A stretch of DNA of 64,000 bases, taken from positions 24,238-88,237 of the forward strand of contig CAVUQT010000006.1 of the NCBI GenBank assembly GCA_963743645.1, given 5' to 3'. How positions within the stretch are numbered: the first letter of the stretch is position 1; each line of letters starts with the position of its first letter. The translations under genes and the position numbers were made by a program. A model generated the notes under the pieces. That model was not told the origin of the DNA. It saw only the letters and a list, made by a program, of their open reading frames with translations, and did no database searches. Below are positions 38,712-43,268 of this stretch, piece by piece. This DNA is from an uncultured Solirubrobacterales bacterium (lineage in GTDB: Bacteria > Actinomycetota > Thermoleophilia > Solirubrobacterales > Solirubrobacteraceae).

Positions 38712-39442
38712 CGGTACAGCTCTGCGATCTCATCGGAATCGACGTCGGCGGCGGCACGTAGCAGCGCCGGCCGCCCGTCACGCAGGCCGAGCACGACATC
38801 GGCCTCGGCGAGACCGCCCGTCGGGTCGTGGCTGGAGATCACACGAGTGCGCTCCGAGCTGCGGCCGATCAGCGGATCGACCAGCTCGATCGCCGCCGGA
38901 TCGAGGTTCGCTCGAGGCTCGTCCAGCAGCAGCAGCGCCGGGTCGTGCAGCACCGCGCGGGCGACCGCCACACGTTGGACGATTCCGCGCGAGAGCGTTC
39001 GCAGGGGCTCGTCCGCGCGGCCGTCGATCCCGACCGTCCGCAGCAGCTCCTCGACCCGGTCCGGCTCGACACGGTGCAGACGGGCATGAAACCGCAGGTT
39101 CTCGCGCGGTGTCAGCTCCCGGTACAGCAGCGGCTCGTGCCCGAGCAGGCCGACCCTGCCACGCACCTGCCAGGCATCGTCGGGCAGGCTCCTGTCAAAG
39201 ATGCGCACGCTGCCCGAGTGCGGGCGCAGCAGTGTGGCAAGCACGCGCAGCAGCGTCGTCTTGCCCGCGCCGTTCGGGCCGAACACGACCAGCGTCTGGC
39301 CCTTTTCCAGCGACAGCGACACGTCGGCCAATGCCTCACGTTCGCCATAGGAGCGCGCGAGCCCTTCGGTCCGCAGCACCTCGCCCGACGTTCGTCGGCC
39401 GGGCTCGGCGCTGATCGTCGTCTGGCCGGCGCCGTCGGTCAT
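38708..39442 (-). CDS. ccmA: Heme exporter ATP-binding protein CcmA
   Basis: GPNGAGKT, LGHEPLLY.ELT..ENL, LSRG and LLLDEP motifs. Confidence 0.88.
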   Translation of the reverse strand: MTDGAGQTTISAEPGRRTSGEVLRTEGLARSYGEREALADVSLSLEKGQTLVVFGPNGAGKTTLLRVLATLLRPHSGSVRIFDRSLPDDAWQVRGRVGLLGHEPLLYRELTPRENLRFHARLHRVEPDRVEELLRTVGIDGRADEPLRTLSRGIVQRVAVARAVLHDPALLLLDEPRANLDPAAIELVDPLIGRSSERTRVISSHDPTGGLAEADVVLGLRDGRPALLRAAADVDSDEIAELYR

Positions 39443-39459
39443 GAGGATGGTCCGCGGAC

Positions 39460-40131
39460 TCAGGCGCTGACGGTCGCGGGCGCGTGCTCGCGTTGCGCCT
39501 GTGCGATCAGCTCGCGCACCGCCCGCTCGTCATCGGCGCGCAGCAGCTCGATCGGGTCGGGGGCTGCGCCGACGATCGACTCGAAGAACTCCTTGCGGTC
39601 CTGGTAGGTCGGCAGCGTCGCCTTGGCCCAGCCGCGTACCTCGTTGAGCAGCACTGCCAGTCGCGCGTACGGCTCACCGTACTGGCCGGCGATCTCGCGC
39701 TTCATCCGCTTGGCCAGCGCCGGCGACGCGCCCGCCGTGGATATGGCGATCGCCAGCGGCCCGGTGCGCACGATCGCGGGCAGGATGAAGTTGCACAGCG
39801 GCGGCACGTCCACCACGTTGACGAGCATCGCGCGACGCTCGGCGTCGTCGTAGACGGCGATGTTCACGTCCGTGTCGTCGGTCGCGGCGATCGCCATGAA
39901 CACGCCCTCCAGGTCCTCAGGCCCGGCGTATGAGCGCTGCTCCCAGCGGATGGATCCCTCGCGGGCGTAGTCGGCCAGCGCGGGCAGCGCCCGGGGCGCG
40001 ATCAGCGTCACCGCGCCGCCGCACGCCAGCAAGCCGTCGACCTTCTCCAGCCCGATCTCGCCGCCTCCCACGACCACGCACCGGCGCCCGCTCAGCCGCA
40101 GGCAGGCGATGTAAAAGGGGGTGTCGAGCAT
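39460..40131 (-). CDS. Precorrin-2 dehydrogenase / sirohydrochlorin ferrochelatase (CysG N-terminal, SirC/Met8)
   Basis: [23 protein letters not shown] and ISTAGASP motifs. The real start is ATG 40131. Confidence 0.92.
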
Positions 40132-40334
40132 GCCCTGGACGCAGCTCTGGTCGCAGATGTCGCGACGCAGCTGACACACACACTCCTTGCCGGCGTAGGC
40201 CTGGGCTGGCATGCGCTCAAGGTTAGCCGTCCTCGTGTTTGGGTCGCATGTCTGACCACGATGGGCCACGCCAAGAAGCTCGGGGTGTGCTGAAGGGGAT
40301 GGGGCCGCATGCTTTACAAAAGCTGATGGTCTGG

Positions 40335-40477
40335 GCCTCGCCGCATGCGGCGAGGCAGGCAGGGTCGCATGCGACCCTGCCTCGGGGGCGCGCATGCGCG
40401 CCCCCGCCGTTGGCGCATGCGCCAACGGCTGACGTGCCGCATGCGGCACGTCACGGGGCTGTACATGTACAGCCCCG
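40335..40477. repeat. Array of six abutting perfect palindromes (22-26 bp) with variable arms and constant RCATGY core
   Basis: Units at 40335-40356, 40357-40382, 40383-40406, 40407-40428, 40430-40453 and 40454-40477. Each was checked base by base as its own reverse complement. Confidence 0.97.
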
Positions 40478-40611
40478 GACAACATCAAGCCTAATCAGCA
40501 TGCGCGGCACACTGCTTCAGCGGGGCGCATTCGGAGCTGCATGTGCGGCTCTGCCGGACACGCGACTACTCTGGGGGGCGATCAGTTCGTCGTAAGCTCA
40601 GGAGGAGGACA

Positions 40612-41139
40612 ATGGCCGACTGGAGCCAAAACACGAACAAGTTGCGCGAGCTGATCCTGTTCATCGCGGACAGCTGCGCTGACGAGCTGGTCGGTGACAT
40701 CTATCTGAACAAGGTGCTGTTTTTCTCTGATGCTTTCGCCCTGCAGCATCTGGGCGAGCCGATCACGGGCGCCCGCTATCAAAAGCTGCCCTTCGGTCCT
40801 GCGGCACGGGCGCTTGTGCCTCTACGCAATGAAATGATCGCGGACGGCGATGTCGCGATTGAGATGATCGGCAAACGTCGGGTTACGCGCGCTCTGCGAA
40901 AGCCCGATACATCGCTCTTCTCGGCTGACGAGATCGAGATGGTCGAACGCGTCATGGATCTGTTCCGTGGGTACTCCGCGACTGTGGTGAGCGATGCGTC
41001 GCACGATCTGTCGCCTGGGTGGAATCTTGTCGAGATCGGCGAGGACATTCCACTGCAAAGCCAGCTCATCTCCACGGCTCCTCCATCTCAAGAGGTTTTG
41101 CGGCGTGGACGTGAGCTGGCCGAGAAGTTCGACTGGTAG
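40612..41139 (+). CDS. Panacea-domain (DUF4065/SocA/GepA-like) antitoxin
   Basis: KLRELILFI...LNKVLFFSD...G.PITG..Y.KLPFGP...SH...W motifs, with RBS AGGAGGAGG. Confidence 0.85.
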   Translation: MADWSQNTNKLRELILFIADSCADELVGDIYLNKVLFFSDAFALQHLGEPITGARYQKLPFGPAARALVPLRNEMIADGDVAIEMIGKRRVTRALRKPDTSLFSADEIEMVERVMDLFRGYSATVVSDASHDLSPGWNLVEIGEDIPLQSQLISTAPPSQEVLRRGRELAEKFDW

Positions 41140-41148
41140 GCGGCCCTC

Positions 41149-41472
41149 GTGCTACGCCGCTGGGTCGTGACATACGGCCCCGAGTTCGATAGCTCGAAGC
41201 GAGCATGTGACGTTCCGCCAGATCGACTCAGATTGCACCTTGAAGCGTTCGAGCTCGATCTGGAAAGAGACCCCCTGCGCTACTCCGAACCGTTCGCGGG
41301 CGAGTCACGCCGGGTCATCGAGACGACGGACTACACCGGAGACGGATTTGTTCTAACGGCATACGTCGTCCTCTATGGGAACTTCACCGCTGAAATCAAG
41401 TGGATCGAGAAGACGCCGCTCTCCGACGAAGACATCGAGGAAAGTGATCCCGACGACCGTGATCCACGCTGA
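41149..41472 (+). CDS. Putative cognate toxin, RelE/ParE-like size and layout
   Basis: 107 aa, 9 nt downstream of the Panacea gene. Layout is WVVTYGPEF, helix, LERDP, then three beta strands. The fold is inferred. Confidence 0.55.
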   Translation: MLRRWVVTYGPEFDSSKRACDVPPDRLRLHLEAFELDLERDPLRYSEPFAGESRRVIETTDYTGDGFVLTAYVVLYGNFTAEIKWIEKTPLSDEDIEESDPDDRDPR

Positions 41473-41534
41473 TCAGGTCTACTGGCGTGACGGTACGCTC
41501 GCACGACAACCCGAAGTCGGTCTGCAGGCGTTCC

Positions 41535-43268
41535 CTACCGCGGCAGCCCCCGCCCCAGCATGCGCGCTCGTACGCGCACGAGCGCGGGGCCGCCCTGTCG
41601 CCATGCGCGCCCGCGATCGCCCTTGCGCGAGGAGCGCAGCCGCGCGACCGCCCGCGCCGCGCGGACGGTCGTCTCGTCGTAGGGCCCCCACCACAGGCCG
41701 CGCAGTCCTGGCGGGCTCCACGCGATCAGCTTCTCCTGCGCGCACGCGCGCAGCCCGCTCTCGCCGAGCGTCTTGCCGAGACCGCCCCCGGCCGCGGCCC
41801 CCCACGGCCCGCGCGCCAGGGTGGGCCCGGGCAGGTGGTCGTTGCACCACACCATGCCCGCCTGCAGCTCGCGCGCGATCCGCATCCCGCGGTAGCGATC
41901 GGCCGTCCACACCGACGCGCCCAGCCCGTAGTCGCAGTCGTTGGCCAGCGCGATCGCGTGCTCGACCGAGTCGACCTCGACGACCGCCAGCACCGGTCCG
42001 TCCAGGGGCTCGCGCATGAGTCGCATGTCCTGCCTGACGGATGTGATCACCGCCGGGGCGTAGAACGCCCCCGAGCATCCCGGCGGCGCGTCGATCGCGC
42101 CGCCGCAGCGCAGCTCGGCGCCCTGCGCGACCGCCTCGCCGACCAGCTCGGTCACGTGCTCGCGCCGGCGCTCGGATGCCAGCGGCCCCACCTGCACGCG
42201 CGGATCGGCGGGGTCGCCAACCGACAGCCCGCGCGCACAGCTCACCAGGCGCGCCACGAACGGCTCGGCCACCGTCCGCTCGACGTACACCCGCTCGACC
42301 GCCCCGCGCGCCTGCCCCGCGCCCGCGCATCCCGCCCACAGGGCGCCGTCCACGGCATGCCCCAGGTCGGCGTCGGCGAGCACGAGCATCGCGTCCTTGC
42401 CGCCCAGCTCGACCGTCACCTCCGTCTCGCGCGACACACATTCTCGCGCCACCGTCCGTCCGATCGCCGGCGAGCCGGTGAACAGCACCTTGCCGACGGG
42501 CGCCCGCGCGAGCGCGACGCCCACCCGTGCGCCGCCGTGCGCGATCGCCACCAGCCCCTCGGGCAGGCCCGCCCGACCCAGCACTCGCATGATCGCCTCG
42601 CCCGCCAGGCAGGCCCGCCGCGCGGGCTTGACGACGACCCCGTTGCCCGCCAGCAGCGCTCCCGCGATCTGTCCCAGCGGCTGCGCAAACGGCGCGCTGC
42701 CCGCTCCGATGACGCCGATCGTGCCGTACGGCTCGTATGCGATCCGCGTGCGCTTGCCGATCGCCGGCGAGCGGCTCAGCAGCGGCATGCCGATTCGCCG
42801 GCCGCCAAGCATCTCGCCGCCCTCCTCGGCGATCCAGCTCAGCGCGTCGATCGCCGCCAGCAGCTCGAGCGTCGCGATCTCCGCGCGCGGGCGGCCCTGC
42901 TCGCGCGCGATCTCCGCCTCCAGCGTGTCGAACTCGTCCACGATCGCCTGCGCCATCCGGCGCATGTACCTGGCGCGGTCCACCACCCGCAGCAGGGCCC
43001 ACAGCGGTTGCACCTGCGCCACGCCCGCCACGACCTCGTCGATCCGCTCCGGCGGGGTTGCCTGCACCTCGCCCAGGATCGCGCCCGTCGCGGGATCGCG
43101 GGCGAGCAGCGTGCGCTCGTCGCGCGCCTCGTCGGCGATCCCGTCCGGTCTCACGGCCCCGCCTGGTCCCGGGGCCCCGTCTGGTCCCACGGCCCCGCCT
43201 GGTCCCGGGGCCCCGCCTGGCCCCGGGACCTCGGCCGGGGCGGCGTGCCTGTCTGCCGCTGTGCTCAT
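41535..43268 (-). CDS. Aldehyde dehydrogenase-family protein lacking catalytic Cys/Asn
   Basis: FTGS, ELGGKD and YGLGASVWT are retained. GQARGA replaces GQxC and GAGSAP replaces PWNxP. Confidence 0.85.
   Translation of the reverse strand: MSTAADRHAAPAEVPGPGGAPGPGGAVGPDGAPGPGGAVRPDGIADEARDERTLLARDPATGAILGEVQATPPERIDEVVAGVAQVQPLWALLRVVDRARYMRRMAQAIVDEFDTLEAEIAREQGRPRAEIATLELLAAIDALSWIAEEGGEMLGGRRIGMPLLSRSPAIGKRTRIAYEPYGTIGVIGAGSAPFAQPLGQIAGALLAGNGVVVKPARRACLAGEAIMRVLGRAGLPEGLVAIAHGGARVGVALARAPVGKVLFTGSPAIGRTVARECVSRETEVTVELGGKDAMLVLADADLGHAVDGALWAGCAGAGQARGAVERVYVERTVAEPFVARLVSCARGLSVGDPADPRVQVGPLASERRREHVTELVGEAVAQGAELRCGGAIDAPPGCSGAFYAPAVITSVRQDMRLMREPLDGPVLAVVEVDSVEHAIALANDCDYGLGASVWTADRYRGMRIARELQAGMVWCNDHLPGPTLARGPWGAAAGGGLGKTLGESGLRACAQEKLIAWSPPGLRGLWWGPYDETTVRAARAVARLRSSRKGDRGRAWRQGGPALVRVRARMLGRGLPR
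43155..43226 (-). repeat. In-frame 18-bp tandem repeat x4 (PGPGGA)
   Basis: GGCCCCGCCTGGTCCCGG-type units. Confidence 0.85.

Follow-up and report, generated by a model that had tools for sequence, protein, structure and literature searches.

The window, by which we mean the whole 64,000-nucleotide stretch of DNA analysed, belongs to genome G000 (3.23 Mb in 10 contigs) and carries an array of six palindromes at positions 40335–40477. These had been described as mismatch-free in the initial annotation, and they proved to be real: they are 22–26 bp long, the gaps between them are 0–1 nt, and their centres are 24, 25, 23, 24 and 24 bp apart. Unit 1 (40335–40356) is a perfect palindrome of 22 bp, with a 9-bp stem and a CATG loop. 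Unit 2 (40357–40382) is a perfect palindrome of 26 bp and of the GGCAGGGTCG type, an arm type that is common throughout the repeat family described below, and the 24 bp of unit 3 (40383–40406), also perfectly palindromic, occur four times in identical form in the genome. Unit 4 (about 40406/7–40428/9; 22–24 bp), unit 5 (40430–40453; 24 bp) and unit 6 (40454–40477; 24 bp) are perfect as well, and none of the six units is assigned to a strand. The core was confirmed as CGCATGCG in five of the six and as TACATGTA in unit 6, where the YR closing pairs have been altered by transitions on both arms.

The array is bracketed by two terminal modules. The left module (40300–40334, plus strand) consists of a half-unit, GGGGCCGCATG, an AT-rich mini-hairpin, GCTTTACAAAAGC, and then TGATGGTCTG; the right module (40478–40510, minus strand) is an inverted, more diverged copy, GACAACATCAAGCC..CAGCATGCGCGG. 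When window 40296–40514 was folded as RNA, the right module paired with the left one and closed the six hairpins inside a module–module stem (−146.8 kcal/mol, z −10.7). The flanks of the element are AACAACATCAGC-like. Between the left module and the start of a sirohaem-synthase gene (40212) lies the left outer part (40234–40299, no strand assigned) of an insert of ~1.3 kb. It holds more degenerate RCATGY half-sites, aligns at about 80% with sequence from a related genome, G058, and may be part of the repeat element.

On the other side of the array, and outside the repeat element, is a gene for a Panacea-domain (SocA-like) antitoxin (40612–41139, plus strand), as the initial annotation had proposed; a PF13274 match at E 9e-15 confirmed the domain. 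It is followed by a 107-aa ORF (41149–41472, plus strand), also outside the element, which is a putative toxin partner. This ORF had no match in Pfam, PADLOC or NCBIfam. One homologue (31% identity, E 6e-5) was found in G019, where it immediately follows the closest Panacea gene. The ORF may encode a toxin from a family that has not been described. The GC content of the Panacea cassette is 0.58–0.60 versus 0.70–0.79 in its flanks, and the toxin–antitoxin (TA) part of the query matched no DNA at this locus in any of 60 congeners. Panacea homologues with 31–44% identity were present in 10 of the 60, all except that of G059 at other loci. G000 itself has a second Panacea-domain gene (contig C9:25651–26175), about 34% identical to the one in the window, with the nearest array about 3.8 kb away.

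The two closest relatives, G023 and G003, lack the sequence corresponding to window 40234–41533. Since about 20 bp separate the stop codon of the aldehyde-dehydrogenase gene from the start of the sirohaem-synthase gene in both genomes, this part of the window is an insert. A 3-bp sequence, CCT, flanks the 1.3 kb insert on both sides, which may be chance. At the identical junction, G058 has the repeat element without the cassette, and arrays are also found at this junction in G005, G015, G019 and another MAG. The same spacer in G059 holds a degenerate unit and a different Panacea gene (38% identity; loci L147 and L153), which marks it as an insertion hot spot and argues that the array is not a TA element. 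Across the genus this spacer appears as an insertion hot spot, with other small genes in G070 (L134) and G013 (L132) and an unrelated tandem-repeat block in G045 (L137). A separate AT-rich perfect palindrome, GTATAACCATGGTTATAC, lies upstream of the sirohaem-synthase start in G015 (L143), and a related imperfect palindrome was seen at the corresponding position in G005 (L140); these may be an operator site with no relation to the repeat family.

Several known kinds of element were considered for the array. A search of window 39000–42000 with the covariance models of Rfam 15 gave no matches at E values up to 1, and a blastn search of reference plasmids and phages with the element gave none. When the element was scanned for T-tract terminators and sigma-70-like promoters, none was called. 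A canonical intrinsic terminator was ruled out by the absence of a T-tract from the arrays. CRISPR was rejected because there is no constant repeat beyond the 8-bp core, there are no spacers and the units are self-complementary. The initial annotation had stated that the array is not CRISPR and not a classical REP cluster, and both statements were upheld.

We then analysed the CATG sites of the whole genome. Among the 9709 such sites in G000, the number of complementary pairs per 24-bp frame was bimodal, with 152 sites at 12/12 pairs, 25 at 11/12 and a background mode at 4–5. The arm length showed a sharp peak at 12 for CATG, which was absent for eleven other 4-base palindromic cores. Perfect pairing around CATG is far beyond chance. 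The 152 perfect units comprised 117 different 24-mers. A structure-based scan, in which 10-bp stems around any 4-nt loop were chained at 21–27 bp, found about 41 arrays of 2–6 units, with about 190 units on 7 of the 10 contigs, so that the initial view of an array special to the Panacea locus was not borne out. The unit centres were 24 bp apart in 93 cases and 23 or 25 bp apart in 39. Two of 136 internal spacings fell outside 22–26 bp, showing that decayed units are rare inside arrays.

Outside the arrays, the core 8-mer CGCATGCG was not enriched (153 occurrences versus 126 expected), which rules out a HIP-like iterated 8-mer. Avoidance of a CATG-specific restriction system was ruled out, the 9709 CATG sites comparing with about 9700 expected from base composition. 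Other short words in G000 do deviate. From base composition, 126 occurrences of GCGATCGC would be expected, and 830 were counted; GATC is in excess by about 3-fold, and CTAG (1585 sites) and CGCTAGCG (25 versus 126) are strongly depleted. The excess of GCGATCGC is reminiscent of the cyanobacterial HIP1 8-mer, but may merely reflect codon usage.

The anatomy of the unit was characterized on a conservation set of 127 arrays with 521 units from genomes other than G000. The unit is 24 bp long and consists of a 10-bp stem and a CATG loop. The loop was CATG in 503 of the 521 foreign units, and the closing positions −4/−3 were CG in 453, CA in 39, TG in 21 and TA in 4, all changes being transitions that the opposite arm always mirrored. 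Entropy was 1.1–1.8 bits at each of the eight outer arm positions, and 420 distinct arms were found among 666 units. Stem mismatches in the foreign arrays were concentrated (118 of 134) at the unit boundaries, in the two outermost pairs. In the inner eight pairs of the stem there were 16 mismatches among 4168 pairs in the foreign arrays and 22 among 5648 (0.4%) with G000 included; since the units had been detected by their pairing, this apparent perfection is inflated, and the count of aberrant internal gaps is a partial control. The 22 inner mismatches were A.C in nine cases, G.T in six and others in seven, and thus there is no tolerance of G.U-type pairs. The loop variants CAAG, CGTG, CACG, CTTG and CTAG were asymmetric while their stems remained paired, as would be expected if the central four bases are unpaired. 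The units thus behave as the initial annotation had supposed, namely as hairpins with a stem of about 10 bp and a 4-nt CATG loop, in which pairing is kept and the arms vary.

The terminal module could be described more generally from other copies as a CATG-ending half-unit and an AT-rich mini-hairpin (GCTTnnnAAGC), followed by TGATGnTGTy. The consensus CCGCATG-CTTnnnAAAAGCTGATGnTGTy was found at 18 array ends in G000 and exclusively beside arrays, and where an array had a module at both ends, the two copies were inverted. Modules at both ends were seen in the window copy and a few others. Among the 127 foreign arrays, 14 had strict terminal modules and 113 had no recognisable module. G000, about 1 Mb of foreign loci and the five genomes richest in arrays were searched for inverted pairs of modules 1–3 kb apart and for an autonomous parent IS with the modules at its ends; neither was found. 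In places the module is duplicated locally: on contig C7 of G000 (973572–973835), five tandem copies of a segment made up of the terminal module and a broken unit, with a period of ~59 bp, directly adjoin a six-unit array, and similar duplications of the module were seen at L069 and L076.

To describe the distribution of the family, we used a pattern of three cores at unit spacing. This pattern was present in 46 of 61 genomes of the window's GTDB genus, and a reversed-pattern control gave 0 everywhere. The number of pattern matches per genome ranged from 0 in some single-contig genomes (e.g., G059) to 137 in G023. The complete genomes G009 and G014 likewise had none, and G003 and G000, like G023, each had over 80. 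Among 201 genomes sampled from the order, the pattern occurred in 12 of 56 genomes of one family and in 0 of 144 from five other families; within the positive family it was found in the window's genus and two sister genera. A pattern match in G251, also from the order sample, was not palindromic. When one genome per prokaryotic species was scanned, almost all matches came from uncultured soil MAGs of the Solirubrobacterales/Solirubrobacteraceae. Two IMG/VR contigs and one Clostridia MAG were false positives, with plain direct tandem repeats containing CGCATGCG. A description of this repeat family was not found in the literature searched.

The arrays are intergenic. In G000, 35 of the 41 arrays face the 3′ end of at least one gene, often 4–25 nt past the stop codon. 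The nearest coding frames were identified by a flank-walking GC3 call, an earlier caller having been too strict (53% coding). By this method, 26 of the array-bearing spacers in G000 were tandem, 9 convergent and 5 divergent; the window copy, which is divergent, was scored as tandem since the low-GC Panacea gene was not called coding. Because they mostly lie just past stop codons, the arrays would be in 3′ untranslated RNA. By analogy with REP/BIME and BOX elements, their likely effect in the cell is to protect or terminate transcripts through a stable 3′ structure.

Comparison between species showed that whole elements as well as single units are gained and lost, and many sites were filled in several species. 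Fifty-six foreign arrays had both flanks syntenic in G000, where 28 of the sites were filled and 28 were empty, the empty sites being clean spacers. No target-site duplication was visible at seven pairs of filled and empty sites, with a flank identity of about 80–92%. The mobility of the element is inferred from such presence and absence only. The 50% occupancy is far above the ~1–2% of spacers that we estimate to bear arrays (about 41 of roughly 3000). The array at the same site was the best match among the 41 G000 arrays in only 3 of the 28 cases; at the other 25 syntenic sites, the G000 array resembled the foreign array no more than a random array does. At a flank identity of about 80%, arm turnover may be too rapid for orthology to be traced; alternatively, the sites have been hit repeatedly, and the shared sites could reflect repeated insertions into hot spots rather than inheritance.

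To follow the evolution of individual stems, syntenic pairs with a flank identity of at least 85% were aligned over the whole region, and intact units in the second genome were not required. All loops were in register in 12 pairs. In these, 321 inner pairs were unchanged, 51 were compensated on both arms, 8 were changed on one side and 3 fell in other classes. The mean stem-pair divergence was 14.6%, compared with 9.9% in the mostly coding flanks, and it was very uneven across pairs, ranging from 0 to 44%. Adjacent compensated changes came in runs; between L046 and L104, for example, ACC had become GAG, with the change mirrored on the other arm. Clean losses of single units were also seen, in steps of about 24 bp, one of them as a 22-bp deletion. 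The three arrays that were demonstrably orthologous to G000 arrays had 99 unchanged, 10 compensated and 3 one-sided pairs. A first orthologue count of 342/85/5 was discounted, as the units had been pre-filtered for pairing and most same-site arrays were not demonstrably orthologous. The unfiltered alignment of all 22 pairs (535/123/82/21) was inflated by out-of-register units, and the in-register subset was used in its place.

The phenomenon itself, palindromes that stay perfect while their arms vary freely around a conserved centre, is real and unusual. We think it likely that the array in the window belongs to a dispersed, intergenic family of multi-hairpin repeats that is non-autonomous and specific to one lineage, an uncultured genus of Solirubrobacterales; the family is similar to REP, BIME and BOX elements, and its symmetry would be kept by hairpin-templated correction, by selection or by both. 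The element is modular, with 2–6 abutting 24-bp hairpin units, and a minority of copies are bracketed by inverted terminal modules that could close the whole element into a multi-branch structure. The hairpins would fold when the nucleic acid is single-stranded, be it DNA at the replication fork or RNA. The strict Watson–Crick symmetry would stem mainly from a DNA-level process rather than from RNA-level selection alone, because one-arm intermediates are very short-lived and the pairing is Watson–Crick on both strands. Template switching is well documented as a source of mutations; it produces perfect stems and carries changes, including multi-base ones, from one side of a stem to the other (PMC8794818). 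During replication it may act as a hairpin-templated correction, in which a change on one arm is copied to the other, and it would fit the multi-base, event-like pattern of the changes; selection probably assists by clearing broken units. Template switching explains neither the conserved centre nor the fixed unit size, however, so something must read YRCATGYR or the loop, and the conserved YRCATGYR centre would be the part read by some factor. Event-like replacement of units would explain the uneven divergence and the adjacent changes in runs just as well as template switching does. Indeed, the data are compatible alike with template switching, strong selection, whole-unit replacement by ectopic conversion, or an enzyme that nicks the centre and leads to fold-back synthesis.

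A stronger form of this reading, which we regard as possible but hold only tentatively, is that of a self-symmetrising DNA element. Here, one arm would be rewritten from the other by highly efficient template switching or by a factor acting at the RCATGY centre; the arms would drift at or above the neutral rate while pairing is kept, and only the centre would be read. If true, this would be a natural, genome-wide case of mechanistically driven “compensatory” evolution that operates without a RAYT-type partner. The family would in any case offer a natural test bed for how stems stay paired while they evolve, as the hundreds of independent, syntenic units per genome could separate template-switch correction from selection.

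In another explanation, the family is a selfish element, and a lineage-specific nuclease or transposase nicks the RCATGY centre, after which fold-back synthesis resets each unit to a perfect palindrome, so that the sequence is constrained at the centre alone. Such an enzyme would account for the restriction of conserved letters to the centre and closing pairs (CATG in 503/521 units, YR transitions only), for strict Watson–Crick pairing with no excess of G.T, for the burst-like range from 0 to about 140 pattern matches between complete genomes of one genus, and for whole units appearing and vanishing in ~24 bp steps. No candidate enzyme was found, however: Y1/RAYT genes occur in only 2 of the 61 genomes, the richest not among them, and no autonomous element bears the terminal modules. 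Moreover, the low-copy arrays in the sister genera are still perfect, which fits a host-wide process better, with the caveat that these matches were selected for intact cores. We consider the selfish enzyme rather unlikely. Still less probable, in our judgement, is a phased array of duplex-DNA binding sites, in which a dimeric nucleoid, segregation or regulatory protein sits on YRCATGYR every 24 bp and the palindromy of the arms is secondary. The 8-bp palindromic core and the constant spacing of 23–25 bp would suit such a protein, and REP/BIME elements are known protein-binding sites (PMC2817692). This model gives no reason, however, why eight non-conserved arm positions should stay complementary (22/5648 mismatched); the asymmetric loop variants with paired stems (CAAG, CGTG, CTTG) fit an unpaired loop and not a duplex site, and the core 8-mer lacks enrichment outside the arrays (153 versus 126 expected).

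The remaining two explanations concern the window copy itself. The initial annotation had suggested that the array could be coupled to the adjacent TA pair as a cis element, i.e., a processed array of antitoxin or guide RNAs, a decoy or a phage sensor, and the array does lie 135 bp upstream of the Panacea start codon. This coupling found no support, and we now regard it as very unlikely, since the distribution of the arrays already contradicts it. Such a neighbour is absent from about 40 other arrays in G000; the 11 other Panacea loci all lack an array within 1.5 kb, where 4.6% would be expected by chance; G058 carries the element alone at the same junction; and the cassette is low-GC, foreign and without a DNA match at this locus in the 60 congeners. 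The Panacea cassette is separate, horizontally acquired DNA beside one copy of the array. Similar units are thus scattered genome-wide with no Panacea association, the pattern that the initial annotation had itself named as evidence against its proposal, yet they do not make up an “ordinary” REP family. As for an assembly or synthetic artefact, Logan short-read contigs from four soil runs covered both flanks, but none spanned the array and one stopped at 40334; short-read contigs break at the edge of the array and neither bridge nor contradict it. Against this, arrays built in the same way but with different arm sequences are present in more than 100 contigs of MAGs that were assembled independently in several projects, often at syntenic sites, so that an artefact can be excluded with near certainty. 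The arrays do break short-read assemblies of an abundant soil lineage, and they are easily mistaken for locus-specific regulatory or defence elements, which makes them an annotation hazard.

REP, BIME and BOX repeats shape bacterial transcripts and genomes, and the preferred reading, a dispersed multi-hairpin repeat, can be compared with each of them. In the BOX elements of Streptococcus pneumoniae, end modules bracket a variable number of internal modules. Like the family described here, BOX elements are dispersed and intergenic, have predicted stable RNA folds and are without a transposase of their own; the sequence of their modules is conserved and is not a perfect palindrome, and they have no sequence relation to the present family and come from a different phylum. 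The family resembles MITEs in being small, non-coding and present or absent between relatives, and some copies have inverted terminal modules. Unlike MITEs, it showed no target-site duplication and had no autonomous IS sharing its ends among the sequences searched, and most copies are module-less.

The likeness to REPs and BIMEs, which are known from Enterobacteria, Pseudomonas and Stenotrophomonas, lies in short, GC-rich palindromic units in high copy, which are intergenic, often at gene 3′ ends, clustered and species- or genus-specific (PMC3333891, PMC2817692). In both systems, the copy number differs strongly between relatives. The palindrome of a REP is imperfect, and its sequence and GTAG-type foot are conserved, whereas the present units are perfect and symmetric, with variable arms and a conserved loop. 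The REPs of a BIME alternate in orientation and are joined by linkers, while the units here have no orientation and abut with 0–1 nt between them. REPs also depend on a REP-flanked RAYT (Y1) transposase gene, and no RAYT was found here: of the 61 genomes of the genus, 2 had a PF01797 match above the cut-off, and the genomes with the most arrays, G000 (80% complete), G003 and G023, had none, while the positive control gave matches in 6 of 14 control genomes. A REP–RAYT system was ruled out, as far as tested, by this absence. The family is thus intergenic, high-copy and lineage-specific, as REPs and BIMEs are, and does not have their conserved imperfect units, alternation or RAYT.

Template-switch (quasipalindrome) mutation accounts for perfect stems, multi-base compensation and missing intermediates, but it has been described in RNA genes and mutation hot spots, not as the defining feature of a dispersed repeat family (PMC8794818). 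The units also resemble ordinary terminator hairpins, which are perfect inverted repeats with a 4-nt spacer just past stop codons (PMC13155455). In a bacterial survey of such repeats, the spacers took more substitutions and the arms were conserved (PMC13155455). The family described here reverses this pattern, in that the loop is conserved and the arms vary, and it forms tandem arrays of up to six or more units with no T-tract. Known repeat families keep their sequence and tolerate imperfect stems; in this family, the sequence is free, the pairing is near-perfect and the loop is conserved.
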